Shown: positions 1 to 13,839, counted from the first letter of the stretch. The stretch: DNA of 64,000 nucleotides from an uncultured Candidatus Binatia bacterium (GCA_965218425.1 OZ244621.1:2208001-2272000), one strand, 5' to 3'. Translations and numbers: made by a program. The notes: a model not told the origin generated them from the letters alone.

Positions 1-2
1 GC

Positions 3-1046
3 CCGCCACATACGATTAGTATTCGTACCCTGGCTTGGACCTACGAATGGTGAAAGGTATTCCCATACTAGTTCGCCCGCCGCGGTCACCTCAAATATCC
101 GGCCACTCCACGAATCACACATAACCGTATTGCCATTAGCCAATCGCTGATTTGCGCCACAGATACATGTATAGAAGATGTATGGAGGATCTTCCTTATA
201 CTCCCATACTATCTGATCTGTAGCGGGTTCAATCTCAACTATGCGGGAATAGTTGGGCTCATAACCACGACGGTCGTTTCCATTGTCAAAAATAAGAAAA
301 TTTCCATTATCAAGCTCTCTGCAATCATGCTGATGGCTAAGTCTACCTCTGCCATATCTCCCAATTACCTTACCCGTTGGATACTCCACCTTGGTGGCTT
401 GATTTAGGTAACGCGTGCCTAACAAAACGTTGCCGTCACGGCATACCCAGATTGAGTTTATGTAAGGCCATATCCGTCGTGTCTCCAACGGATAACCAAG
501 CTCATCGATCTCCGGATCAAGGTGTTCATAGGCTCGCCATTCCCATACTCTATTACCATTGCGGTCGATTTCGTAAACTGCATCGCCGTATATTTGCCCA
601 TTAAGCTCAGTTCCCGGGCGGCCTCCTTTTACCTTGGCTGCAATTTCATCAGGTAAAATGCATTCCGGGGCCCAAGCGTGGTACAGTATGTTACCATTGT
701 CCTTAACATAAAAGGTATGGAATTGATTGGGAGCTTCGATTTGCCACACAATGTTTCCATCCCAATCCATCTCCATAAACATGCCACCCACCCCAGCGAA
801 CTCCATAGGAAGGCCCAATTCCTCATGACTTTTTACCCGTAATGCCGTAAACAAGTTACCATTCGGTAAAAGCACCCCGTGAGCTCCAGGGCCATAGGGC
901 ATTACCCAGCGATTCACAATATTACCTTTCATGTCAATCAACCATGTATTCTTGCCGCCTTGGGGAGCAAAAAAGGTATACCCGTCATCTGCCTTCAATG
1001 GGTCATAACAGGTAACCCCCAGCCTTGCTGTCTTAGCAATACTCAT
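3..1046 (-). CDS. Arylsulfotransferase (ASST)-family beta-propeller protein, 3' end outside the window
   Basis: Missing from the ORF track because there is no stop in the window. Manual translation from ATG 1046 (RBS-like GGAAAGGAAG) is open to the edge: MSIAKTARLGVTCYDP...GYTFFAP...WPYINS...SHQHD...LIFDNG...GANQRLANGNT...GRIFEVTAAGELVWEY, typical of ASST-like proteins. Confidence 0.75.
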   Translation of the reverse strand, partial: MSIAKTARLGVTCYDPLKADDGYTFFAPQGGKNTWLIDMKGNIVNRWVMPYGPGAHGVLLPNGNLFTALRVKSHEELGLPMEFAGVGGMFMEMDWDGNIVWQIEAPNQFHTFYVKDNGNILYHAWAPECILPDEIAAKVKGGRPGTELNGQIYGDAVYEIDRNGNRVWEWRAYEHLDPEIDELGYPLETRRIWPYINSIWVCRDGNVLLGTRYLNQATKVEYPTGKVIGRYGRGRLSHQHDCRELDNGNFLIFDNGNDRRGYEPNYSRIVEIEPATDQIVWEYKEDPPYIFYTCICGANQRLANGNTVMCDSWSGRIFEVTAAGELVWEYLSPFVGPSQGTNTNRMWR

Positions 1047-1139
1047 TTAGACTTCCTTTCCTCATACCTTAAGCGAAAATAACAGATTAATTATCTTCAG
1101 CCAAAGCCTGCATCTGCCCAAAGGTGTCCTTATCGGCTC

Positions 1140-3107
1140 TTACCCCTTCATTAAGTTAGGTAGAAATGTCGATAGTTCAGGGAAGACTATCAGGATACCC
1201 ATACCCATGAACAATATAATTACAAACGGCATTACTCCCCTAAATATCGTGGCGAGAGGCACATCTGGGGCCACGCCTTTTACGATGTAAATATTTATGC
1301 CTACTGGCGGCGTAATAATAGCGATTTCGCCTAGTAGCACTACTATGACTCCGAACCATATTGGGTCGTACCCTAGTGCCAGAACTATGGGGAAGAAGAT
1401 AGGAATGGTGAGTAAAAGTAATGGAATGTTCGGCATAAAACAGCCCAAAAATGAATAACTGATTATAATAAAAGTCAATATAGCAGCAGGGGGTAGTGCA
1501 AGCCCACCTATATACGAAGCGAGGTTCATAGGCAGCCTGCTCACCGCGAGAAATGGGGTCACTATCTGAGCACCAATAAGCATCAGAAGCATCATGCTGG
1601 TAGTGATTGCAGTATTGGTCAGGGATGTGTTAAATGCTTGCCACGTCAGGCGTTTGGTTAACAAACCAAGAAGCAATGCGCCAAAGGCACCGATACCACC
1701 CGCCTCATAAGGAGTGAAAACCCCCGTGTAGATGCCTCCAATGACTACTACAAACAGGATCAATATCGCCCAAGCACCCTTGAGGGACACCAGCTTTTCG
1801 CTCAGCGTTGACTTGGGTCCGGGCGGGCCCAAATGTGGCCTCAGCCGAACACGAATGTAAATATAGAGCATAAGCAGGGCAGCTAGGATAACTCCAGGGA
1901 CAATGCCAGCCAGAAAAAGCCGCCCAATGGATTGCTCGGTGACGAGTGCATAGACGATAAACGTTATGCTGGGCGGTATCATAATGCCAAGAGTCCCACC
2001 GGTAGCAATTGTACCAGTGGCCAGAGCATCATCGTATTTGTATTTCTTCATCTCTGGTAAAGCCACCGTACCCATGGTGGCCGCTGTGGCCCCGGTGGTA
2101 CCACTTACAGCGGCAAAACCAGCACAACCACCTATAGTCGCGATTGCCAGTCCCCCAGGTAGGGTTCCGAGCCACCGGTATACGGCAAAATAGGCATCTC
2201 TGCTCAGCCCTGAGGCATAACAGAACTCACCCATAAGTACGAAAAGGGGAATGGCTAGGTAAGTGTAATTTCTTGCCGCTTGAAATGGAATTATCCCCAG
2301 TGTAGCTAACCCAGGGGCAACTCCGATCACATAGCTGGTACCCACGAAACCAACCAGAGCTAGAGCAAAACCGACAGGCATTCCCGAGAACAAGAATAAA
2401 ATGAGTATGCCAAAACCAATGATTCCTGCAGCCATAGGGGTTACAGCCCAAGGCAGTAATCGAAACACTACAGCCACAACCAGCGCCAGGCTCATAACAA
2501 TGCCCACCATTAAGGCTATCCAACCACCTAGTTGGTTTCCCTGCACTGCACGTTTAACGCAGTCCGTGAGATCCCCTAATACGACTAAAAGAAGCAAAAG
2601 AAAGCCAAAAACTAGGAATAACTCGAAAGGAAAAAGAGGAATCCTAAGCTCTTCCGTTACCGCAGTTTGAACTCTCAAGACGTTGGCCTGCAGTAGGCTG
2701 CTCCATATTATCAAGCCTAGAAGAACTGCCACCATGATTCCGGTGATACTCTCAATTATGGCACAAGTCCTTGGCCCGAGCTTTGAGACCACTACATCGA
2801 CGGTTACATGCCGCTTCATATGGGCTGTGTAACCTACCCCGGAAAATATTATGACCACCAGCATCAGCGTGGTGAGATCCAGGGAGCCTAATATCGGGGA
2901 ATCGAACACGTACCGCAATGTGACATCAGCGACAACAATGAACACGATTACCAACATCGCCGCTTTTGATAGGTTCAGGACCAGCTCACTTAAATGACCG
3001 GCGACCTTTCGAAGCCAATCCAATTTGCCCTCCAGTTTGAATGCTGCTGATTTTAGGGTTTTAGCGAAATTTGGTGAGACTCTGGTAGCGAATCCTGATT
3101 GAAGCAA
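1140..3107 (-). CDS. dctQM: TRAP transporter fused small+large permease (DctQM)
   Basis: 655 aa polytopic membrane protein; N-terminal DctQ-like 4 TM (HVTVDV), DctM motifs AIPLFVLMGE, GGTLGIMIPPS, ITPPVG; true start may be downstream. Confidence 0.9.
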   Translation of the reverse strand: MLQSGFATRVSPNFAKTLKSAAFKLEGKLDWLRKVAGHLSELVLNLSKAAMLVIVFIVVADVTLRYVFDSPILGSLDLTTLMLVVIIFSGVGYTAHMKRHVTVDVVVSKLGPRTCAIIESITGIMVAVLLGLIIWSSLLQANVLRVQTAVTEELRIPLFPFELFLVFGFLLLLLVVLGDLTDCVKRAVQGNQLGGWIALMVGIVMSLALVVAVVFRLLPWAVTPMAAGIIGFGILILFLFSGMPVGFALALVGFVGTSYVIGVAPGLATLGIIPFQAARNYTYLAIPLFVLMGEFCYASGLSRDAYFAVYRWLGTLPGGLAIATIGGCAGFAAVSGTTGATAATMGTVALPEMKKYKYDDALATGTIATGGTLGIMIPPSITFIVYALVTEQSIGRLFLAGIVPGVILAALLMLYIYIRVRLRPHLGPPGPKSTLSEKLVSLKGAWAILILFVVVIGGIYTGVFTPYEAGGIGAFGALLLGLLTKRLTWQAFNTSLTNTAITTSMMLLMLIGAQIVTPFLAVSRLPMNLASYIGGLALPPAAILTFIIISYSFLGCFMPNIPLLLLTIPIFFPIVLALGYDPIWFGVIVVLLGEIAIITPPVGINIYIVKGVAPDVPLATIFRGVMPFVIILFMGMGILIVFPELSTFLPNLMKG

Positions 3108-3258
3108 TTCTACTTAAAACTCTCTATAACTTATTGAAAAGCTCGTGTTACTTCACTCTCTCAGCGACACCCTTCAGTTCTGGTGGTGCTAGTACTCCCC
3201 ACAAACTTATAGTGAGTCTCGATAAAATATCTCTACTTATAGTGGCTCTTTGCTATTT

Positions 3259-3288
3259 GCTCAACCGTGGAATTATCCACGGTTGAGC
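3259..3288. promoter_or_regulatory. Perfect 13-bp stem-loop between dctP and dctQM (possible mRNA stability/attenuation element)
   Basis: gctcaaccgtgga-atta-tccacggttgagc; no U-tract in the transcribed (minus) direction. Confidence 0.55.
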
Positions 3289-3330
3289 CGCTCATTCAAT
3301 TTTCAACTAAATTCAGTATAACCTCATACG

Positions 3331-4356
3331 CTACATAGACTCTAGGTACCGCTTTAAAAATGCTAGGGCCTTGCTACCAGACCGTCCTTTCTTATCCAGC
3401 ATAGCACCATAGTCAACTGGCATGCTCTTCAAGGTATCTTCCCATCTAGAGGATTCAGCTCGTGAGAGCTTAATTAGTTTGGCGCCTTCCTTGACCATCA
3501 AATCCACGCGACTTTGGTCCATTCGATCGGCTAGTTCACCCATGCGTCTTGATTGAGACTCTCCGCCCAGTGCGTTGAACGCAGCCTTCGCATCTGATGA
3601 CAAGCTCTTCCATTTGTTACGATTCATCGCAACAAAGAATGTTATACTGCCGGTATTGGGGATGGATGTGATGTAGGGCGCAACTTCATGGAACTTTCGA
3701 GAGTACGCGCCCCCCGGCTGAGTAACTACACCCTGCGCCACTCCCTTTTCGATGGCAGTGTACGTCTCTCCGAATGGTACAGCCACCGGGACAGCACCCA
3801 GTCTCTTGAGCGCCACCGCTGGCGACCCAGCATTTGACCTAAGCTTCATACCCCGTAGGTCATCCAGGTTACGAACCGGTTTTTTGGAGAAGATGGTGTT
3901 GCTCCCCAAAGTGAAAAACCACAAGGGTTTGACAGAGGCAAACTCTTTTTGGATCGCCGGAATATTCTTGTACGCAGCCCAAATTGCTGCGTTATCATTA
4001 GCCATATTTCGTTTAACTCCAGACGTCAGACCTGCGGTAATAATCCCTTCAAAGGTGAAACGGCCTGGGGTATAGTAGCTTGCTGTTTCAACAATATCAG
4101 CTACACCTGCATTAACAGAATCCCACGCTGCTTGCGCCTTGACTAGGCTATTGGACGTATAAAGAACCAATTTAACTTTGCTCCCGGTACGCTTCGCTAT
4201 CTCTTGTGCGTATGGTTTCCACCAATCTGTGACTCGATAGTGTTTTGGTGGGATCTTCAGCGCTACGTTTAGTTCGACAGGTTCGGCTGGTGCCGGTGCT
4301 AAAAACAACGCCAGTGTGCTAAGGGTTGAAACAATAATCGTTAGTCTATACTTCAT
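3331..4356 (-). CDS. dctP: TRAP substrate-binding protein DctP
   Basis: Signal peptide, motifs KPVRNLDDLRGMKLR, LGAVPV, ETYTAIEKGV, HEVAPY; directly upstream of dctQM. Confidence 0.9.
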   Translation of the reverse strand: MKYRLTIIVSTLSTLALFLAPAPAEPVELNVALKIPPKHYRVTDWWKPYAQEIAKRTGSKVKLVLYTSNSLVKAQAAWDSVNAGVADIVETASYYTPGRFTFEGIITAGLTSGVKRNMANDNAAIWAAYKNIPAIQKEFASVKPLWFFTLGSNTIFSKKPVRNLDDLRGMKLRSNAGSPAVALKRLGAVPVAVPFGETYTAIEKGVAQGVVTQPGGAYSRKFHEVAPYITSIPNTGSITFFVAMNRNKWKSLSSDAKAAFNALGGESQSRRMGELADRMDQSRVDLMVKEGAKLIKLSRAESSRWEDTLKSMPVDYGAMLDKKGRSGSKALAFLKRYLESM

Positions 4357-4437
4357 ATTTCGCCTCCCTTGCTACTTCACTTCATATTTCGCCTCCCTTG
4401 CTACTTCACTTCATATTTCGCCTCCCTTGCTACTTCA
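4351..4437. repeat. Three exact tandem copies of a 29-bp unit containing the dctP RBS and start codon
   Basis: cttcatatttcgcctcccttgctacttca at 4351, 4380 and 4409. Confidence 0.95.
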
Positions 4438-4684
4438 AAAAATAAATATTAAACTCTATGATTACCAAGATCTGAAACCGATGTCAAGTCCCTGATTGGA
4501 TCAATAAACTTGCGAGTCCTTTATAATCGGACATATAGCAAAACATATTGAATAACGTTAGAAATATTACTTAACATTCATTCTACCATCGTGGTGACAA
4601 CAATCCTGCTAGTTATCATGATGTTTGGTCGCTAAATAGTTCCCACAGGGGTAGTGCGTCGACCGAATGGGAGGAGATTGGCCG

Positions 4685-6259
4685 ATGCCGGTCAAATCGC
4701 TGGTAAGACCACAACTCTACAAGGACTCGGTCGTCCTTATGCGTATCTCGGAGGCACTTTCTGGGATCGAGGGCGTGAAGCATGCCACCGTGATGATGGG
4801 GACGGCCGCCAACAAGCAAATCTTGGAAGAGAGCGACCAGCTCACTGCCGAGGTGAAGCTAGCCGGGCCCGACGACCTCATGATTGTACTTGAGGCTGAT
4901 TCCGGCGAGGTTCTGAATTCTGCTCTCACTCACGCCGAAGGTCTCTTGTCCGAAGTCAGCAAGACACAAGGTGAAATCCACGAACGACCACCGCGGACAG
5001 CGTCGACGGCTCTAGCGCGGCTGCCGGAGGCGAACTTGGTCCAGGTATCAACCCCAGGACAGTATGCGGGGGCAGAAGCACTAAAAGCCCTTCGCCATGG
5101 TTTACACGTATTCCTGTTCAGTGATAACGTTTCACTGGAGCAAGAGATTTTCCTTAAGACAGTGGCATTACGCAAGGGGCTTTTAGTTATGGGGCCGGAC
5201 TGCGGGACCTCCCTCATCGGGGGAACACCTCTGGGCTTTGCCAACGTCACCCGCCGTGGAACGGTCGGACTTGTAGCGGCTTCTGGGACTGGTCTGCAGC
5301 AAGTGACATGCCTTATTCATCAACTTGGGGAAGGAGTCTCTAATGGCATTGGGACTGGAAGCCGGGACCTGGCACAGGCCGTAGGTGGAATCACAACGCA
5401 GCAGGGATTAGAGGCCCTCTCAACTGATCCACAGACGCGCGTCATTGTTCTCATTTCTAAACCTCCTTCTCCGAATGTGGCCGCTCGGATTCTCGAGCGA
5501 GTACAAAAAACTGCCAAACCTGTGGTAGTCCTTTTCCTCGGGGGTGACTCCGAGATGGTTCGGGCAGCTGGCGCAATTCCGGTGGTAACACTCGAAGAGG
5601 CGGCGATTTGGGCTGTGGCCCTCGCCCGAGGTGAAGACCCCCAAACTATAAAAAGCTCCTTGCCCCTCCATCTGGAGACAGTGCAGGCTGAGGGCCGACG
5701 CTTCAATTCCAGCCAGCGGTATTTGCGAGGCCTGTTCTCTGGTGGAACCTTTTGTATAGAGGCCCAAATCGTCTGTCATCAAGAAGGGTTGAATACCTTC
5801 TCTAACGTCCCTCTCGATAAAACATACACTTTGGCTAACATTCAGGGGAGCAAAGAACACACCGCCATCGACATGGGCAGCGATGAATTTACCGTCGGCC
5901 GACCCCATCCGATGATTGACTTCCGCTATCGAGTCGATCGACTATTTCGCGAGGCCCAAGACCCTACGACCGCTGTCATCCTTATCGATGTTGTCCTCGG
6001 CTATGGTGCTCACCCGGATCCCGCTGCCGCTCTCGCCCCCGCAATCCAAGAAGCCAAGAGATCGGCTCAACGAGAAGGAAGGTATCTGATAATTGTAGGA
6101 TCCGTCTGCGGCACGGAGGAAGACCCCCAACATCTATCTGCCCAAGAGGCGCGCTTACGGGAAGCAGGGATGCTCCTAGCTTCTAGCAATGCGAGCGCGG
6201 CAAGGCTGGCTGCCGCTATTACCACAAAGCGCACATCTTTCGAGGAGGCACAACCGTGA
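4685..6259 (+). CDS. fdrA: FdrA/YahF-like acyl-CoA synthetase-fold protein (oxamate carbamoyltransferase AllF-like subunit)
   Basis: YKDSVVLM, VMMGTAAN, FLFSDNV, MGPDCGT, ASGTGLQ, GTGSRDL, GLFSGGT, GRPHPMID motifs; RBS GGAGGAG before ATG 4685. Confidence 0.9.
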   Translation: MPVKSLVRPQLYKDSVVLMRISEALSGIEGVKHATVMMGTAANKQILEESDQLTAEVKLAGPDDLMIVLEADSGEVLNSALTHAEGLLSEVSKTQGEIHERPPRTASTALARLPEANLVQVSTPGQYAGAEALKALRHGLHVFLFSDNVSLEQEIFLKTVALRKGLLVMGPDCGTSLIGGTPLGFANVTRRGTVGLVAASGTGLQQVTCLIHQLGEGVSNGIGTGSRDLAQAVGGITTQQGLEALSTDPQTRVIVLISKPPSPNVAARILERVQKTAKPVVVLFLGGDSEMVRAAGAIPVVTLEEAAIWAVALARGEDPQTIKSSLPLHLETVQAEGRRFNSSQRYLRGLFSGGTFCIEAQIVCHQEGLNTFSNVPLDKTYTLANIQGSKEHTAIDMGSDEFTVGRPHPMIDFRYRVDRLFREAQDPTTAVILIDVVLGYGAHPDPAAALAPAIQEAKRSAQREGRYLIIVGSVCGTEEDPQHLSAQEARLREAGMLLASSNASAARLAAAITTKRTSFEEAQP

Positions 6260-7692
6260 GCCTAGGACTTTTGGAGCGGCAACCCGCTGTAATCAACATT
6301 GGCGTTAAAACTTTCGCAGAAAACGTGAACGCTACTGGAGCACGTGCACTCCAGGTGGACTGGCGCCCACCGGCTACAGGGGACCCGAGGACAGCTTGGC
6401 TCCTAGCAATGCTTACAGGAGATCCGGACGACCCTACCTGCCATGGATCGCAGGTCGACAGGGCTAACTTGGAGGCAATAAAGAGCCTCGTAGATGCCCA
6501 ACCGACGCTCGTGGATATTCTACAAGGCCGGGACGTCTGGCCGAACCTCGGAAAAACGATTCTACATGCTGGTCCCCCCATTGCTTGGGATCGGATGTGC
6601 GGTCCGATGCGGGGAGCCGTAATCGGGGCAGTCCTCTACGAAGAATGGGCGCAATCAGAAGGAGAGGCAGAGGAATTGGCAGGAAGCGGAGAGATTCAAT
6701 TTGCTCCGTGCCATCACTTTGCTGCTGTCGGTCCCATGGCCGGGATCATTTCCCCTTCGATGCCTCTCTTCGTTGTCAAGAATTTCGTTGGAGCGAATTT
6801 CGCGTACAGTAATTTGAACGAGGGCCTCGGTAAGGTTCTACGCTTCGGAGCGTACAACCACGAAGTGGTGGAACATCTCCGGTGGATGGAACGGATTCTC
6901 GCGCCAGCTCTGAAGCGAGCTTTGGCGGGACTCGAACAGGGCATCCGTCTAAAGCCAATCATGGCCCAAGCCCTCCAAATGGGGGACGATGTTCACAATC
7001 GGAATGTCGCGGCTACGTCTCTACTGTTCCGAGCCCTTGCAAGGGCGATCATCAGCTCAGACCTCAACCGGAAGACAGTCGATAATATCCTTGCGTTCAT
7101 AGACGGTAATAACCACTTTTTCCTGAATCTGTCCATGGCAGCTTGCAAGTCGAGCCTCGACGCCGCCCACGGCGTTGCCGGTAGCAGTCTCGTAACAGCG
7201 ATGAGCCGAAATGGCGTGGAGTTTGGGATTCGAGTTTCCGGGCTCGGAGATCGGTGGTTCACAGCACCTTGCCTGGTTCCAAAAGGCCTGTACTTCAGTG
7301 GTTACTCGGAATCCGATGCAAATCCTGACCTGGGTGATAGCTCCATCGCTGAGACAGCAGGCGTCGGCGGGTTCGCCATGGGAGCGGCACCCGCCATGGT
7401 ACAGTTCGTTGGAGGCACTCCCGAAGACGCCTTGGCATACACGCATGATATGTATGAGATCACAATAGCGAAAAACCCCGGGTTTTCCTTGCCACCGTTA
7501 AACTTTTTGGGCACACCCACGGGCATTGACCTGCGAAAGGTGGTAGATTCAGGCATCTGCCCCGTGATCAACACAGGCATCGCCCATCGGACCGCAGGGA
7601 TCGGCCAAATCGGAGCCGGCGTTGTGCAGGCCCCGATGGCTTGTATTGAAAATGGTTTGCTGGCTCTGGCGGAAGCGTTAGGGCTGCAATGA
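6256..7692 (+). CDS. DUF1116 / YlbE / YahG family protein (AllG-like subunit)
   Basis: [63 protein letters not shown] motifs; overlaps the fdrA stop. Confidence 0.9.
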
Positions 7693-7711
7693 GGCGAGGG
7701 AGGACAGAACC

Positions 7712-8815
7712 ATGATGACTGTGCAGGTTGAACGAATTCCAATGTCGGGACCAGGCGATGTCTCAGGGCTCAAGGCTCTCCTCAGCCAGGGTACCCTCAA
7801 GGCTGAGGATGTGGTTGCAATTATGGCCAAGACAGAAGGGAATGGTTGCGTCAACGACTTTACACGGGGCTACAGCACATTTGCCTTACAGGTTCTTTTA
7901 TCGGAACTCTCGGGCATCCCACGGGGAGAGATAGCCCAAAGAGTTGCCTTTGTGATGTCTGGTGGAACAGAGGGGATCCTCAGCCCTCATGCTACGGTAT
8001 TCGCCCAAACGCTAGGAGGCAAGGCTGCCACTGATCAGAAGCGACTGTCGATTGGTGTCGCTCACACCCGAGATTTTCTGCCCGAGGAGCTGGGCCGGAT
8101 GGCACAGGTCCGCGAGGTCGCAAAAGTAATCCAAAAAGCTATGCACGAGGCAGGAATTGACTCAGCCAACGATGTTCACTTCGTACAAATCAAGTGTCCA
8201 CTGTTGATTTCGGAACGGATCGAAGATGCCCGCCGCCGCGGACAGACTGCGGTCACAATGGACACGTACGAATCTATGGGTTACTCCCGAGGCGCGTCCG
8301 CGTTGGGGGTCGCCCTGGCATTGGGAACGATCAACGAATCCAAGCTGTCAGACCATGTCATCTGTGAGGACTGGGGTCTCTATTCAGGGGTGGCATCCAC
8401 TTCCGCCGGCGTGGAACTCATGAATTGCGAGGTCATACTTATGGGCAATTCATCCTCCTCGGCCAGCGATCTAATCATTGGTCACAGCATTATGAAAGAT
8501 GCGATCGACGGGGAGGCAGTTCGAGAGTCTCTCCGTTCCGTGGGCTTACGCGTGGATGGGATGGTACACCCGATGGATAGACACCGGATCGTGAACGTCT
8601 TCGCCAAGGCGGAGGCCGATCCCAGCGGCTATGTTCGGAATCGACGACATACTATGTTGAACGATTCCGACATCAACAATACCCGCCACGCAAGGGCAGC
8701 CGTCGGAGCAGTCATCGCGTGTATCGTTGGAGACCCGATGATCTATGTCTCCGGGGGCGCAGAACATCAGGGTCCTGCAGGGGGCGGGCCAGTGTCCGTT
8801 ATCGCCCAAGCGTAG
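7712..8815 (+). CDS. atzD: Cyanuric acid hydrolase/barbiturase-family ring-opening amidohydrolase (AtzD/TrzD-like)
   Basis: [62 protein letters not shown] family motifs; [12 protein letters not shown] is the cyanuric-acid-hydrolase-like variant. Confidence 0.88.
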
Positions 8816-8831
8816 TCAAGTAGGTACTCCC

Positions 8832-9782
8832 ATGAAGTTTGACCCGAATCTGGTAGTAGTCGCTATTGGCGGTAACGCCATATTTCCACAACAAATTCAG
8901 GGCACTGCTGAAGAGCAATTCCAGATCGTCAGCCGGACCTGTGAGCATCTTGTCCAGATAGTCAAGAAAAGATACCACATCGTACTTACGCATGGGAACG
9001 GGCCTGTAATCGGCAATATCCTCATTCGGATGGCCATGGCCAGCTCCGTTATTTCTCCCATGCCGATGGACGTTTGCGTAGCTGACACTCAAGGGGGAAT
9101 TGGCTACATAATTCAACAGTCATTGATGAACTGTCTGCGCGAGCACGGAATCACTATCCCTGTGGTTTCCGTCATCACACAGGTTGAAGTCTCGGGGGAA
9201 GATCCTGCTTTCCATCACCCTTCGAAACCCGTTGGCCCCTTCTATACTCGCAAGGAGGCTGACCGAATCAGCCAGGAGACAGGATGGAAGTTCATGGAGG
9301 ATGCTGGACGAGGTTACCGCCACGTCGTTCCATCGCCAGATCCCCTGGCCATCTTAGAACTAGACGCGATCCGGGACCTGAGGGAAGCGGGAGTCATTCC
9401 CATTGCGGCAGGTGGGGGAGGGATACCGGTTGTCCGTCAAGCTGATGGCCACGAACGTGGGGTGGCTGCTGTGATCGATAAAGACTTGGCCAGTGCCGTG
9501 CTCGCTATTGGGCTCAGGGCGGGGGTTTTCCTCATCCTTACCGCTGTTGATACCGTGGCCCTGGACTATGGGAAGGAAACCCAGCGCGGCGTCACAAATC
9601 TGACTGTCCGGGAGGCAAAAGCTCACCTCGAGGCAGGACAGTTCCCTGAGGGAAGTATGGGCCCCAAGATTCGAGCAGCGATAAATTATCTAGAGAGAGG
9701 GGGCGACAAGGTCCTTATCACCTCCTTGGAGCGAGCCCTCGATGCTATTGAGGGGAGGACAGGAACCCGAATTATTCCCTGA
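8832..9782 (+). CDS. arcC: Carbamate kinase
   Basis: VAIGGNA, THGNGP, TQGGIGY, PSKPVGPFY, EDAGRGYR, GGGGIPV, VIDKD, GSMGPK; start taken at ATG 8832, after the atzD stop. Confidence 0.93.
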   Translation: MKFDPNLVVVAIGGNAIFPQQIQGTAEEQFQIVSRTCEHLVQIVKKRYHIVLTHGNGPVIGNILIRMAMASSVISPMPMDVCVADTQGGIGYIIQQSLMNCLREHGITIPVVSVITQVEVSGEDPAFHHPSKPVGPFYTRKEADRISQETGWKFMEDAGRGYRHVVPSPDPLAILELDAIRDLREAGVIPIAAGGGGIPVVRQADGHERGVAAVIDKDLASAVLAIGLRAGVFLILTAVDTVALDYGKETQRGVTNLTVREAKAHLEAGQFPEGSMGPKIRAAINYLERGGDKVLITSLERALDAIEGRTGTRIIP

Positions 9783-9786
9783 CGCC

Positions 9787-11043
9787 ATGAGCCACCACCG
9801 ATACGACCTGATTGTACGCAGAGCTAGGCTTGACTCGGGCGCAATCCTCGACATTGGAATAACCTCCGGCCGAGTCGTAGCTTCAGCCGCTGCACTACCT
9901 GCTGAAGGGACGGCAGAGATCGATGCGGCCGAGCGATTGACACTTCCCGGCTTTGTCGACCCCCACCTGCATCTGGACAAGGTGTTTTCACGGGCCGAGC
10001 TTGCGCAGCCACCGGAGACCTTGACCGAGGCCATTAGAGCGTCAAGACAGCTCAAAGGGGAGTGGAGTCAAGACGCCATTGAAGAGCGAGCGGCACGAGC
10101 CGTGACCATGGCTATCCGGGCTGGGACCACGGCAGTGCGAACACATGTGGATGTAGATCCAATTATTGGTCTACAGGGATTCCATGCACTTCAGCGCATC
10201 CGTGATCGGTTCCAGGGGCAAATACAACTCCAGATCGTCGCTTTCCCGCAAGAGGGGATGGATCGAGATGGCCGGGTCAAGGAGATGCTCCGCTCTGCTC
10301 TCCAAGAAGGAGCGGACGCCATTGGTGGCATTCCTACTCTCCAGCCGAATCCTAGAGAGCACATTGACCGTATCTTCGAACTGGCAAAGCTCTACAATGC
10401 CGATATCGACATGCACGTGGATGAATCAGATGACCCAGCTGACCTGTCAATTGAGTATCTTGCTGAGAAGACGTTAGCTAATGGCTACCAGGGAAGAGTC
10501 GTGGCTGGCCATTGCACCTCACTGGCCGCCGTCCCAGTCGAGGTGCTCCACCGTGTGGCAGCCAAGGTAAAGGCGGCTGACATTTCGATTGTAACGTTGC
10601 CTTCTACGAATCTCCACTTACAGGGGCGTTCGGATCGACCCCCCGTGCGCCGGGGCATCGCCCCAATACGAGAACTGATGGAGGCAGGGATCAATGTCAC
10701 CTTTGGCTCGGACAATATCCGGGACGCTTTCACGCCTTTCGGGAACGCCCGAATGTTAGAAACCGGTCTTCTCCTTGCACATGCTGCACACATGGGGACG
10801 GCTTCGGGTTTGCGAATTATTATCCAAATGGCTACGACGAACGCCGCCCGAGCCCTCCGCCTTCCCCTTTATGGCTTCGACAAGGGAAGCCGAGCCGACC
10901 TTGTAATCTGGGATGCGGAGTCGCCAGAAGACGCATTGGTTGGATTATCCGTGCCTCTCTGGGTGGTCGTGAACGGGAACGCAGTCTCCGGTGCTCGCTT
11001 TAAGGATCGACTCCGTCCGCCCGAACCATCCCTTCCCTTATAG
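9787..11043 (+). CDS. Metal-dependent amidohydrolase, cytosine deaminase (CodA)/AtzC-like
   Basis: DPHLHLDK (HxH), RTHVD, VAFPQEG, DMHVDES, GHCTSL, GSDNIRDAFTPFG. Confidence 0.85.
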   Translation: MSHHRYDLIVRRARLDSGAILDIGITSGRVVASAAALPAEGTAEIDAAERLTLPGFVDPHLHLDKVFSRAELAQPPETLTEAIRASRQLKGEWSQDAIEERAARAVTMAIRAGTTAVRTHVDVDPIIGLQGFHALQRIRDRFQGQIQLQIVAFPQEGMDRDGRVKEMLRSALQEGADAIGGIPTLQPNPREHIDRIFELAKLYNADIDMHVDESDDPADLSIEYLAEKTLANGYQGRVVAGHCTSLAAVPVEVLHRVAAKVKAADISIVTLPSTNLHLQGRSDRPPVRRGIAPIRELMEAGINVTFGSDNIRDAFTPFGNARMLETGLLLAHAAHMGTASGLRIIIQMATTNAARALRLPLYGFDKGSRADLVIWDAESPEDALVGLSVPLWVVVNGNAVSGARFKDRLRPPEPSLPL

Positions 11044-11310
11044 GCTGAACATTCTGGAAAACAGGCAGTTCCAGATCCATCAATCCGCGGAGGTCCGCAC
11101 GGGCTCCAAGAGTTCACGCGCTTCTGAAAGACCCTGACCCAGTAGCGAAACAGGAGTCCACCTGCTACAGGAGAAGTGCCCAGGCCCAGAGGGGATAGTT
11201 GCGCATAATAAGACTAGACGAATCCAGAACACTTGATGCAAAATACGAATTTTTGCCCGGCCGTCCAAATAGATTGAAACCTCGTCGTCTACTTCGCCAG
11301 GAACGAGATC

Positions 11311-12192
11311 ATGCTGCAAATTTGTAACTTGAATATCATCGCCGCTAGTGCTGGTCTATTTCCCCTCCTTAACAGCCCCCGCTGGGAGGGTCGGATCTCT
11401 GCGGTCTTCCAGACCAGCCTGCAGATCACCGGACCTAACCAAAGGCTTATCCATCTCCAAGGCGATTCGCTCCTCGTATCCCCATTCAGTATACGCACGC
11501 CGAGCAACCTCGCGCGTAGCATTGCAGATGTTCCACTCGTCGAAGGAATGTCAGTCAGCAAGGAGGGCTCATGGATCGAGGCTCAGGGTCGCCTTCGCCT
11601 CTCGCTTGAGGAAATCTCCTATTATTGTTCGCCCCCGATGGTCAAGAGCTGGATCAATCCGGAGGCCTTGCGTCTCGCCGAACAAACTCTCCGACGCCAA
11701 GGACGTCGCGGCGGTCTCGACGCCATTCCCTCCGGGCGGGCTGCTACCAGAGCAATTCGTAAGGCGCTCACTGGCGGAGAGCCGGATCGACTCCTCACCG
11801 CCACTCTTGCGGTCATCGGTCTTGGTCCTGGCCTGACCCCGTCAGGAGACGACTTCCTAGTTGGGTGCATGAAGGGCCTCTCGCTTTTTGCCGCTTACCA
11901 CCCCAAGCTTAACAACACCCTTGATCTCCTCCGCAGCGGCATCGCAATGCTCCTTCGCACGCGGACGAGCCGCGTCGGAGCCGAGTTCATCCGCTACGCC
12001 CTAGATGGGCAGTACGCCGAAGTCCTTGACCAGGCTGCGACTGCAATGTTGACCCCCGCAGATCCAGACAAGATAGTATCCGCAGTTAGCCGGCTTCTTT
12101 CCCAAGGCGGGAGTTCGGGAACCGACACGGCCCAGGGACTTCTCGTAAGCCTCAATGCTCTCCACCGGGCCAATTGGATAAGCGGTGGCTGA
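11311..12192 (+). CDS. DUF2877 / YlbF / YahE family protein (AllH-like subunit)
   Basis: IGLGPGLTPSGDDFLVG signature and C-terminal GGSSGTD. Confidence 0.88.
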   Translation: MLQICNLNIIAASAGLFPLLNSPRWEGRISAVFQTSLQITGPNQRLIHLQGDSLLVSPFSIRTPSNLARSIADVPLVEGMSVSKEGSWIEAQGRLRLSLEEISYYCSPPMVKSWINPEALRLAEQTLRRQGRRGGLDAIPSGRAATRAIRKALTGGEPDRLLTATLAVIGLGPGLTPSGDDFLVGCMKGLSLFAAYHPKLNNTLDLLRSGIAMLLRTRTSRVGAEFIRYALDGQYAEVLDQAATAMLTPADPDKIVSAVSRLLSQGGSSGTDTAQGLLVSLNALHRANWISGG

Positions 12193-12678
12193 CAATTTCT
12201 GACAGTGGCAGAGCTGGCAAGCTTGTTTAAGGTCACACGCAGAACGGTCCGCTGATGGGTTCATGATGGGCTCATAGAACCGCGCTTTAGGCTTCGCGGC
12301 GGGAGCTGCTATCAATACATCTTCCCCGAGTCAGAGATTAACCGGTTTTTTGATGAGTATTTTCCTCAACTGAAGGACCTAGATTTAACCCACGAGCCCA
12401 GAGGCAAGACGAAGCGAGTCGAAATGATCCGGCGCATTTGAAATTTGCAAAGGATCTATGCAGGGAAGGCCACTGCAGGCAGAATGACCAAACGGTTAGC
12501 CAAGGAGTATGGCATCAGAGAGACAGAGCTAGAGAACTACGACGACGAGTCGCAGAGCCAAGACGAGGGATCGGCCACCCTGGATCGTGGATCCACACCG
12601 CGAGGGAGTCGCCCCAGTGACCTTGACCGTGGCTTCACCGAAGAACGCTGGGAGGAGGAAGAGGAAGGTAAAGGGTAG
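12193..12678 (+). pseudogene. Degenerate excisionase/MerR-like HTH protein
   Basis: In frame after the DUF2877 stop: QFLTVAELASLFKVTRRTVR*WVHDGLIEP..., with two internal TGA stops, continuing into ORF 12445..12678. Confidence 0.6.
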
Positions 12679-12703
12679 TAGCTGTAGCTAACCCCAGGGT
12701 GAG

Positions 12704-12963
12704 ATGACCGAAGAATATTTAACCATAGAGCAGCTGGGCGAGCGGCTTAATCTCAAGCCGAAGAGCATCAGGAGCAAGATGGTCAATGGAACCTTCATAA
12801 AGGTGTCCACTATTTCAGCCCCAAAGGAATAGGCCCAAGGTTCAAATGGTCAGTCGTGCTCACATGGCTTGAACAAGGCGAGCAGGGGCAGGCTAAAGCC
12901 GCAGATAATGGCGATGGAGCCCCCAAGCCAGATGGCCACTGGCTGGGTTTCGATTATCCATAA
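12704..12963 (+). pseudogene. Frameshifted excisionase-like protein
   Basis: MTEEYLTIEQLGERLNLKPKSIRSKMVNGTF / frameshift / GVHYFSPKGIGPRFKWSVVLTWLE, just upstream of the integrase. Confidence 0.6.
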
Positions 12964-13004
12964 TTTTACACCTCACATGATAGGACAGTTTGTCCTAAAG
13001 GTTT

Positions 13005-13199
13005 ATGGTGACATCAGGGCAATTCCGAAAGCTGCGTGAGTCTATGGATTACAGCCAGGCTCAACTTGGCAACCTGATGGATACTTCGGGTCGCACTGTT
13101 AGACGATGGGAGAATGGTGAAATTCAGATACCCAAGATGGCTGAGATGGCCTTGGAGTTAATCGTGCTCAAAGCGAAACAGAAGAAGGGGAGACGCTAA
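13005..13199 (+). CDS. Xre-family HTH regulator
   Basis: LRESMDYSQAQLGNLMDTSGRTVRRWENG. Confidence 0.8.
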   Translation: MVTSGQFRKLRESMDYSQAQLGNLMDTSGRTVRRWENGEIQIPKMAEMALELIVLKAKQKKGRR

Positions 13200-13828
13200 T
13201 GGCCTGCAAGGTTACGGTTAATCGTCATGGTTACCTCGCCGTTCGCCTTGCACTCAGATGGGGAGATATAGATTTAAAAGCGGGTAGGGCTTCCATTACC
13301 AAGTCCAGGTACTACGGAGCAGAGAACGCGACCAAGACTGGCGGCAGTGAAAGCGATGTGGTCCTTCTGCCCGTGGTTGTGGATCTGCTCAAGGCAACAA
13401 AGCCCCTGCATGCTACCGAAAACGATTATGTCTTCAAGAACCAAGAAGGTAGCCCCATAAACGAGGACAAATGGCGCAAGAAGCACTGGTACAGGGCTTT
13501 GAAGGCATTGGGCATCAAGCCTCGCAAGTTCTACGCTACCAAGCACACCTATATCAGTGTGGCCCTGAGTGAAGGTGTCAACATAAAGTGGCTTGCTGAG
13601 CAATGTGGGACCTCTGTAGCCATGATTGAGAAACACTATGGCAGGTACATCAAAGACGATGGAGATGCCCCTTTAAGGGCGATTTTGGGGGCTGAAACCG
13701 AAACCTTTTCGAGTGAGGAGCAGAAAACAGCGGTAAGTGTTGGGGATGAAAAGAAAGAGGGATGGTCGGGGCGACTGGATTTGAACCAGCGACTTCACGG
13801 TCCCGAACCGTGCGCTCTACCAAGCTGA
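13199..13828 (+). pseudogene. Internally deleted tyrosine recombinase (phage-type integrase)
   Basis: Short N-terminus joined directly to ALRWGDIDL (box I Arg region lost); box II-like YATKHTYIS and HYG retained; abuts the tRNA 3' end, and the last about 22 codons are the antisense of the tRNA. Confidence 0.8.
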
Positions 13829-13839
13829 GCCACGCCCCG
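13763..13839 (-). tRNA. tRNA-Pro (anticodon CGG)
   Basis: Reverse complement CGGGGCGTGGCTCAGCTTGGTAGAGCGCACGGTTCGGGACCGTGAAGTCGCTGGTTCAAATCCAGTCGCCCCGACCA: cloverleaf, CACGG/CCGTG anticodon stem, encoded CCA. Confidence 0.97.

Follow-up and report, generated by a model that had tools for sequence, protein, structure and literature searches.

The genome of an uncultured Candidatus Binatia bacterium (GCA_965218425.1) is closed (4,459,497 bases in one contig, 97% complete, 54% GC), and we analysed a stretch of 64,000 nucleotides of it (OZ244621.1:2208001-2272000), which is called the window throughout. Positions 4685 to 12192 of the window hold six genes that encode AllF/FdrA, AllG/DUF1116, an AtzD-type enzyme, a carbamate kinase, a CodA/AtzC-like aminohydrolase and AllH/DUF2877. 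This operon probably encodes a route for the degradation of s-triazine rings that is phosphorolytic and conserves energy as ATP. An earlier note, made from the sequence alone, had claimed a co-oriented set of these six genes, and every one of them is present on the plus strand. The operon and its intergenic regions are composed as follows:

4357..4684, no strand: divergent intergenic region upstream of allF, presumed promoter region
4685..6259, plus strand: allF/fdrA-like subunit, succinyl-CoA-synthetase-alpha-like (NF004760; longest open reading frame (ORF) from 4667)
6256..7692, plus strand: allG (DUF1116)-like subunit (PF06545)
7712..8815, plus strand: AtzD/TrzD-family cyanuric acid hydrolase (NF052395, PF09663 family)
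8832..9782, plus strand: carbamate kinase (TIGR00746; longest ORF from 8745)
9787..11043, plus strand: CodA/AtzC-group metal-dependent aminohydrolase, candidate ammelide-type deaminase (PDB matches; longest ORF from 9742)
11044..11310, no strand: spacer of 267 nucleotides ahead of allH
11311..12192, plus strand: allH (DUF2877)-like subunit (PF11392)

The start of the gene set at 4685, as given in the earlier note, coincides with the likely start of allF, an ATG that has GGAGGAG 8 nucleotides before it. The kinase likely starts at 8832, 16 nucleotides past the AtzD stop, and the deaminase at 9787, 4 nucleotides past the kinase stop. With successive spacings of -4 (allF and allG overlap by 4 nucleotides), 19, 16, 4 and 267 nucleotides, the six genes form a tight operon with one longer gap, which precedes allH. 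This gap has no Rfam match and no consensus promoter or terminator, and the allH frame is interrupted by stop codons within it. The region 4357-4684 contains three weak sigma-70-like matches that do not exceed those of shuffled sequences; the Rfam scan was empty for this region too. The arrangement of the genes is not due to chance, because this linkage returns in other lineages.

The AtzD protein, encoded by the only AtzD-family gene of the genome, scores 548.6 bits on the 'cyanuric acid amidohydrolase' equivalog model NF052395 (cut-off 360) and 542.5 bits on TIGR02714 (cut-off 153). It has full-length matches to solved cyanuric acid hydrolases (495 bits to 5t13 and 491 bits to 6bum, the enzyme of Moorella thermoacetica), compared with 299 bits to the barbiturase 5hwe. 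The Moorella enzyme is described as having a three-fold active site, with Ser83, Ser231 and Ser347 and Arg-containing oxyanion pockets contributed by three domains (PMC6557486). In an alignment with 6bum and 5t13, the Ser motifs MSGGTEG, ASTSAG and VSGGAEHQ as well as the Arg motifs are conserved, and YSRGASALG is identical or nearly so; the assignment of these motifs to numbered residues is our own reading of the alignment and does not come from that paper. Given this strong homology, we take cyanurate as the predicted substrate and 1-carboxybiuret as the predicted product.

All three subunit families of oxamic transcarbamylase are encoded together with a carbamate kinase in the operon. AllF reaches 497 bits on the FdrA model NF004760 (cut-off 433), is 38% identical to E. 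coli FdrA and matches FdrA in the PDB (3dmy, E 8.5e-81). AllG matches PF06545 (E 9.4e-97), is 50% identical to E. coli YlbE and has a PDB match of 410 bits (3clq). AllH matches PF11392 (E 1.4e-20) and has 30% identity to E. coli YlbF (E 3e-11). No substrate-bound structure is among the PDB matches of AllF and AllG: 3clq and 3dmy are titled only 'Uncharacterized protein' and 'Protein fdrA', respectively. The first two subunit genes divide elsewhere than in E. coli: within the N-terminal part of AllG (residues 1-58, window 6256-6430), residues 6-53 match positions 507-554 of the FdrA profile and residues 427-478 of 3dmy, and the first approximately 55 residues of AllG are thus equivalent to what is the C-terminal tail of FdrA in E. 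coli. The kinase scores 368.8 bits on the arcC model TIGR00746 (cut-off 358.25), with a match that begins at residue 37 of the ORF, and is 37% identical to E. coli AllK/YbcF. Both AllG and the carbamate kinase are single-copy in the genome. AllFGH of E. coli was reported to be an oxamic transcarbamylase in 2024; it is the only characterised member of the family, and the assays described used oxamate and carbamoyl phosphate (PMC11326118).

The fifth gene encodes an aminohydrolase whose best PDB matches are the cytosine deaminase of Klebsiella (4r7w, 203 bits), AtzC (4cqb/2qt3, 196 bits) and E. coli CodA (188 bits); it meets no NCBIfam cut-off, with a top score of 298 against 438. Its motifs HLHLDK, FPQ, HVDE, GHC and SDN contain a complete mononuclear metal site and the catalytic His/Gln: HLH, the His of HVDE, the Asp of SDN, GHC and FPQ align with His60, His62, His217, Asp303, His249 and Gln160 of AtzC. 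Residues specific to AtzC, namely Lys65, Asn304, His219 and Trp309, were contrasted in PMC4577212 with Thr66, Asp314 and Glu217 of CodA; according to the same paper the Lys and Asn bind the extra (second) ring oxygen of ammelide-type substrates, and ammelide, the assay substrate, is hydrolysed by AtzC. In the window protein, the Lys of HLHLDK and the Asn of SDN are of the AtzC type, the Glu of HVDE is of the CodA type and a Phe replaces AtzC Trp309. It is therefore plausible that this enzyme makes cyanurate from ammelide or a similar amino-dione. Among the loci with the linkage described below, the deaminase gene is present only in the window and in its closest relative, locus L015, and it is thus an accessory of this particular operon and no part of the conserved core. 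The earlier note had proposed three substrate routes: the one from ammelide via cyanurate to carboxybiuret is favoured by the AtzD score, the AtzD motifs and the Lys and Asn of the deaminase, and those starting from barbiturate and parabanate found no support.

Outside the operon, the genome has no recognisable enzyme for carboxybiuret, biuret, allophanate or urea. The amidase signature occurs in four genes, none of which lies in the window; GatA is among them, and all four stay below the cut-offs of AtzE (TIGR02715; 425.75, best score other than GatA 250) and AtzF (TIGR02713; 511, best score 235 bits, by GatA). A tblastn search of the genome with a true AtzF returned only GatA, at 29% identity. 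On the BiuH model NF050097 (cut-off 370) the top score was 102 bits among the eight of the 11 isochorismatase-family genes with the strongest Pfam matches. There is no urease alpha subunit gene in the genome, and no urea carboxylase scored above cut-off. The absence of BiuH, AtzE/AtzF and urease that the earlier note had observed in the window thus extends to profile searches of the whole genome, and a complete hydrolytic biuH/atzEF route, which that note had considered as a possible explanation of the flux from elsewhere, is not recognisable in the closed genome. Searches with tblastn also found no match in the genome to E. coli AllC, AllE, GlxK and YbbY; AllD-like proteins are represented by two distant Ldh_2-type genes with 29-31% identity at other loci. 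Ring opening by AtzD frees neither ammonia nor energy, and this leaves the operon partners as the only candidates for the next step.

Recurrence of the linkage was examined by scanning one genome per species with the AtzD protein, which gave 80 loci. ORFs of these comparison loci were called with a codon-position GC filter in union with a longest-ORF list, and several Pfam-less clusters (for example 'unk418') are probably antisense artefacts. All nine loci with an AtzD at least 67% identical to the window protein have AllF and/or AllG within 10 kb (in L022, a 3-kb contig, AllF is present only as a C-terminal fragment), and none of the 71 loci with an AtzD of at most 61% identity has either. 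The nine loci belong to Binatia, Rokubacteria (two), Thermodesulfobacteriota (two), Hyphomicrobiaceae, an alphaproteobacterium, Baltobacteraceae and Casimicrobiaceae, and thus to at least five phyla. AllH, searched with a profile built from the window AllH, is present in six of the nine loci, and of the three loci without it two are short contigs (3 and 6 kb); a carbamate kinase gene is adjacent in four. The 71 unlinked loci have different partners: an SsuA-type ABC transporter in 53, an isochorismatase-family hydrolase in 50, an allantoinase-like cyclic amidohydrolase in 39 and an allophanate hydrolase in 25. When a phylogenetic tree is constructed from 91 AtzD sequences (FastTree, SH-like supports; L018 and L060 were excluded as neither has a single high-scoring segment over 300 residues of the protein), the 13 rows linked to AllF/AllG require two label changes, compared with a mean of 12.4 for shuffled labels, and none of 500 shuffles was as low. 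The neighbourhood survey suggested in the earlier note thus shows AtzD consistently linked to AllF/AllG within its own clade, in the nine close genome loci and in four metagenome loci. The AtzD-AllFG arrangement is a distinct, minority and horizontally mobile form.

Five of the relatives were checked genome-wide; all are metagenome-assembled genomes (MAGs). BiuH is above cut-off in none of the five (one protein reaches 266 bits), AtzF in one, where it lies directly upstream of allH-allF-allG in locus L016 (809 bits), and urease is present in three. A carbamate kinase is found in three of the five, each time solely as the copy within the cluster. Of the two MAGs that lack a kinase, one has the in-operon AtzF (L016), and the other (L021, Baltobacteraceae) encodes a true urea carboxylase (1880 bits, cut-off 1304) a short way downstream of AtzD. 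Positions 9381-16249 of L021 read allF-allG-allH-ydcZ(DMT)-atzD, followed by genes for a 319-amino-acid protein that consists only of the allophanate-hydrolase C-domain, a SnoaL-like protein and the urea carboxylase; a search of this MAG for a full allophanate hydrolase gave none.

Uptake genes vary between the linked loci. L016, L018, L019 and L023 have a Bmp/PnrA-type ABC transporter. A conserved protein of about 445 amino acids with about 12 hydrophobic segments adjoins AtzD or AllF in four loci (L017:5337-6920, L019:8173-9930, L020:2762-4099 and L023:8584-9918); its sole family match, to Na_H_antiport_2, is faint (E 1e-4 to 7e-3), and it has no homologue in the genome of the window. In these four organisms, the protein probably acts as the uptake carrier for the pathway.

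In a second survey, eight aligned AllG sequences served as the query for a scan of metagenomes, and the best 80 of 571 confirmed loci were analysed, a sample that leans to this subfamily and contains many short contigs; neighbours were found by tblastn and clustering, and cluster representatives were annotated with Pfam and NCBIfam. A carbamate kinase is adjacent in 26-28 of these loci, a true allophanate hydrolase is present in 8-11 (representative 785 bits, cut-off 511), a BiuH-like isochorismatase in 11-13 (representative 279 bits, below the cut-off of 370), a free-standing allophanate-hydrolase C-domain protein in six and AtzD in four. E. coli AllC, AllE, GlxK and YbbY have no counterpart in any of the 80 loci, and AllD has one weak match. 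An AllG tree (FastTree, 87 rows) separates a cyclase/molybdoenzyme branch of 39 rows from a branch of 48 rows. Within the latter, rows linked to AtzD, rows linked to AtzF or BiuH-like proteins and rows with a kinase only interleave, and E. coli YlbE is found there on a long branch. The AllG partners of AtzD hence share a subfamily with transferases encoded beside biuret and allophanate enzymes, and this points to a common substrate class from the biuret/allophanate network.

The cyclase/molybdoenzyme branch of AllF/AllG/AllH, which includes the loci L123, L125, L131, L137, L146, L161, L162, L172, L176 and L180-L182, has partners of its own: a PF04199 'cyclase' in 22 of the 80 loci, a three-subunit molybdoenzyme of the xanthine-dehydrogenase type in 14-17 and a pair of a thiolase-like and a ChsH2-OB protein in 7-9. 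This branch has the appearance of a further, undescribed pathway for heterocycles in which the same transferase takes part. Two conserved proteins with neither Pfam nor NCBIfam match, of about 545 amino acids (L124:4242-5879, 12 loci) and about 383 amino acids (L119:9196-10347, seven loci), recur in loci that combine a BiuH-like protein, AllFGH, carbamate kinase and an AH_C-domain protein.

Taken together, the operon would function in four steps. The CodA/AtzC-like aminohydrolase may deaminate an amino-dioxo ring, for example ammelide to cyanurate, as its active-site residues suggest, and AtzD would, by strong homology, open cyanurate to 1-carboxybiuret. Because the latter step by itself provides neither ammonia nor energy, it calls for a downstream enzyme, and we infer from the gene linkage that the AllF-AllG-AllH-like enzyme phosphorolyses the ring-opened ureide, moving the terminal carbamoyl group of the linear molecule to phosphate. 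Its favoured substrate would be carboxybiuret, giving carbamoyl phosphate and allophanate; further or alternative substrates would be allophanate (to carbamoyl phosphate and carbamate) and biuret (to carbamoyl phosphate and urea). Finally, the carbamate kinase, assigned by homology, would convert carbamoyl phosphate and ADP to ATP and carbamate, which would decompose to NH3 and CO2. The expected yield would be one to two ATP per ring. In relatives that have no kinase, carbamoyl phosphate may enter biosynthesis and an allophanate hydrolase or urea carboxylase may take the remainder.

Carboxybiuret is the direct product of AtzD, has a terminal carboxylate as has oxalurate, and would be phosphorolysed to allophanate, in keeping with the AtzF found within the operon of L016. 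Use of allophanate, in turn, would fit L021, with its urea carboxylase and no AtzF in the MAG, and the ten metagenome loci that have a BiuH-like protein and a kinase and no full AtzF; archaeal biuH contigs are likewise reported to have often allFGHK without atzF (PMC12625717). Biuret would give urea, which this genome cannot use. Carboxybiuret is thus probably the favoured substrate and allophanate probably a second one.

It is also conceivable, if rather doubtful, that AllFGH-type enzymes are a general family of ureide phosphorylases with no specificity for oxalurate. They would remove carbamoyl groups stepwise from linear poly-carbamoyl compounds, in this operon from both carboxybiuret and allophanate, so that each cyanurate would provide two molecules of carbamoyl phosphate and two of ATP and a hydrolytic amidase would be dispensable, and they would also serve the BiuH-linked clusters of nitrifiers and a third heterocycle pathway, the one linked to the cyclase and the molybdo-hydroxylase.

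Several points weigh against the phosphorolytic route. No AllFGH-type enzyme is known to accept carboxybiuret, biuret or allophanate, and the window AllFGH may have an unchanged specificity for oxalurate, because its proteins meet the family models of the E. coli enzyme (AllG is 50% identical to YlbE). The accessory genes of the relatives suggest differing substrates: AtzF of L016 would point to allophanate as a product and the urea carboxylase of L021 to urea or allophanate passing through. Absences in the five relatives are weak evidence, as these genomes are MAGs. Support for the linked group in the AtzD tree is moderate (85-91, none starred), and the unlinked L026 joins the long linked branch. 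An even sample of 400 Pseudomonadota yielded nine further genomes with an AtzD-family gene, and AllF/AllG were present in none of the eight loci examined; three of these eight have AtzF and an isochorismatase. Finally, no dedicated transporter or regulator is evident in the genome.

The operon could, alternatively, unite two separate nitrogen-scavenging functions: AllFGH and the kinase would act on oxalurate that is external or formed oxidatively, and AtzD with the deaminase would open cyanurate to biuret, which would be excreted or met by an unrecognised enzyme. We regard this as unlikely, even though the window proteins agree, all three subunits as well as the kinase, with allFGHK of E. coli in family and in the order of similarity, and even though the sole paper that noticed allFGHK beside biuret genes reads them in this way (PMC12625717). 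AtzD sits between allG and the kinase gene with gaps of 19 and 16 nucleotides, and the pairing is kept across phyla and follows the AtzD tree; moreover, no oxalurate route is evident, with AllC, AllE and GlxK absent from the genome and from the best 80 of 571 AllG loci, and AtzD acting alone would provide neither ammonia nor energy. It is distinctly unlikely that the ring is of the pyrimidine type or another cyclic ureide, such that, for example, 6-aminouracil would be converted by the deaminase to barbiturate, and this to ureidomalonate, and the AllFGH-like enzyme would form carbamoyl phosphate and malonamate. The scores of AtzD (548.6 bits on the cyanuric acid hydrolase equivalog with its cut-off of 360; 491-495 bits to solved cyanuric acid hydrolases, compared with 299 to barbiturase) disagree with such a ring, and the operon has no malonamate or malonate enzyme and no uracil dehydrogenase. 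On general chemical grounds this alternative has some appeal: ureidomalonate, an N-acylurea, is nearer to oxalurate than carboxybiuret is. In addition, the deaminase residues do not separate a triazine from a pyrimidine dione, and in metagenome locus L155, whose AtzD is 52% identical, AtzD and AllFGH occur together with an enzyme of the xanthine-dehydrogenase type, which would be required for an oxidative route from pyrimidines.

A further alternative accepts the phosphorolysis and disputes its purpose: carbamoyl phosphate would be used for arginine and pyrimidine synthesis, and the kinase would only dispose of an excess, with the ATP gain being incidental. Two of the five relatives (G001 and G004) have the AtzD-AllFGH cluster and no carbamate kinase at E <= 1e-30, which speaks for this alternative. 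We nevertheless consider this explanation very improbable, as the sole carbamate kinase lies within the cluster both here and in three of the five relatives, and as a kinase is adjacent in 26-28 of the best 80 of 571 AllG loci. Thus, the co-occurrence of the genes is confirmed as real and recurrent, and the phosphorolytic, ATP-conserving route is supported as the best available interpretation that no test run here has refuted, with gene linkage as the evidence for its key step.

The nearest public relative is a MAG labelled Candidatus Binatia (locus L015), in which the proteins of the same genes are 97-99% identical. AtzD-family genes are absent from all 400 other genomes that were sampled within the phylum. 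Near-identical DNA, present at no less than half of the sampled words, was detected in 16 sequencing runs of 11 studies, and one contig of an approximately 98.4% identical strain spans 4463-12313 and with this the entire operon. Two metatranscriptome libraries of one study have contigs over parts of allF, the allG/atzD junction, atzD and the kinase/deaminase junction, for which carry-over of DNA is possible; these contigs do not allow a ranking of expression, are not taken as evidence that the operon is transcribed, and gaps in their coverage have no significance.

Just downstream of the operon, in the interval 13199-13839 of the window, a gene for tRNA-Pro(CGG) (13763-13839) is overlapped on the opposite strand by an ORF of 209 amino acids of the phage-integrase family (27.6 bits, cut-off 27.1); no att-type repeat of the tRNA gene was found in the 90 kb upstream (no shared 14-mer). 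In a related strain (run X9) the contig stops at 12313 and 12313-13760 is uncovered. Upstream, an 11-kb patch (window 1-5000 plus genome positions 2,202,000-2,208,000, which are L185:6000-12000) has a GC content of 45-48% and encodes, all on the minus strand, a TRAP transporter, two arylsulfotransferase-family proteins, a sulfatase, a HAD hydrolase, a PAPS reductase and an ATP sulfurylase. An insertion sequence (IS) element with an rve integrase lies at the far end of this patch (L185:4693-5517). Possibly this patch is an acquired cluster of its own, devoted to sulfated aromatic compounds. The tRNA gene with its integrase ORF, the low-GC patch and the IS element fit horizontal acquisition and are no proof of it.

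The transporter, the part of this patch nearest to the operon, has a doubtful membership:

1140..4356, minus strand: TRAP transporter (DctP 3331-4356; fused DctQM 1140-3107; Pfam DctP, DctQ, DctM)

A role as the uptake system of the pathway is unsupported: the transporter is found only in the window and in the 99% identical twin L015, and it has its strand and its 45-48% GC in common with the upstream sulfate genes. A perfect tandem repeat of three 29-bp copies (100% matches) is present at 4350-4437, and each copy carries a ribosome-binding site, AAGGGAGG, and the dctP ATG on the minus strand. Of the three copies, the two upstream ones encode just Met-Lys-stop (ATG AAG TGA), and dctP itself begins at the third. 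The repeat is a breakpoint in assemblies of related strains from short reads.

Cyanuric acid is the common funnel in the breakdown of s-triazine herbicides, melamine and pool-chlorine stabilisers, and it also arises from oxidised purines. To our knowledge, every route described for the steps after the ring is opened proceeds by hydrolysis and forgoes the energy of the ureido bonds. If true, the route proposed here would be a new reaction class for the degradation of triazines and biuret, would extend the recently identified AllFGH transcarbamylase to a second range of substrates, which is perhaps the more widespread one, and would explain the use of the ring by organisms that have AtzD and lack BiuH, AtzE, AtzF and urease. 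It would also call for a re-annotation of the allFGHK genes of nitrifiers and soil bacteria, which are now read as oxalurate degradation. Should AllFGH-type enzymes even be general ureide phosphorylases, cyanuric acid and related triazines would be an energy substrate besides being a nitrogen source. Full-text literature searches, with most subscription journals outside their coverage, found no paper on this route, in agreement with the earlier note, whose author knew of no biochemical description of the combination; the sole relevant paper was PMC12625717. A 2025 review on guanidine touches on both topics, separately, and papers that deal with TrtA or with the cyanuric acid hydrolase of Moorella contained no remarks on gene context.

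The logic of the proposed route is familiar from fermentation: in the arginine deiminase/ornithine transcarbamylase system and in the agmatine/putrescine transcarbamylase system, a ureido group is phosphorolysed to carbamoyl phosphate, from which carbamate kinase makes ATP. Those transcarbamylases belong, however, to the ATCase/OTCase fold family, to which the AllFGH enzyme is described as unrelated (PMC11326118).

The closest relative in composition is the allFGHK operon of E. coli, which likewise unites the three subunit families with a carbamate kinase; compared with the window proteins, identity is 38% for AllF, 50% for AllG, 30% for AllH and 37% for the kinase. The proposed chemistry is alike too: a carbamoyl group would be moved from an acyl- or carbamoyl-substituted nitrogen to phosphate, and then ATP would be made. 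The literature on this oxamic transcarbamylase and its catabolic kinase AllK comprises Kim & Kim 2022 (PMC9843812) and Kim & Kim 2024 (PMC11326118). The reaction of the E. coli enzyme is oxalurate + Pi -> oxamate + carbamoyl phosphate. The E. coli operon follows allECD, whose products lead from allantoin to oxalurate, whereas the genome of the window has no such genes beyond the distant AllD-like ones and has instead a cyanuric acid hydrolase and an AtzC/CodA-like deaminase inside the operon. The order differs as well: allH is last, after 267 nucleotides, and the part that forms the C-terminal tail of FdrA in E. coli lies here at the N-terminus of AllG.

Hydrolytic mineralisation of cyanuric acid is described for atzDGEHF of Pseudomonas sp. 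ADP and for AtzD/TrzD, BiuH and AtzF of Rhizobium and others (PMC6219798, PMC5806882). The window operon has the same first enzyme, of the AtzD family, and its AtzC-like enzyme mirrors the AtzC that feeds AtzD in the degradation of atrazine. In contrast, AtzE/G/H, BiuH and AtzF are absent from the genome, and a transcarbamylase and a kinase replace the downstream half; the route would therefore be phosphorolytic and energy-conserving.

Clusters of nitrifiers come nearest in gene content on the biuret side: allFGHK is reported beside trtA/biuH/atzF in comammox Nitrospira and beside biuH in ammonia-oxidising archaea (mSystems 2025, PMC12625717). The authors of that paper interpret allFGHK as a separate, collocated pathway for oxalurate, and state that atzD is absent from their genomes. 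As described there, AllFGH and carbamate kinase adjoin enzymes for triuret, biuret and allophanate, and Bmp-type ABC transporters and GntR regulators recur, as in the loci related to the window. In the window operon there is no BiuH, and the partner of the transcarbamylase and the kinase is AtzD itself.

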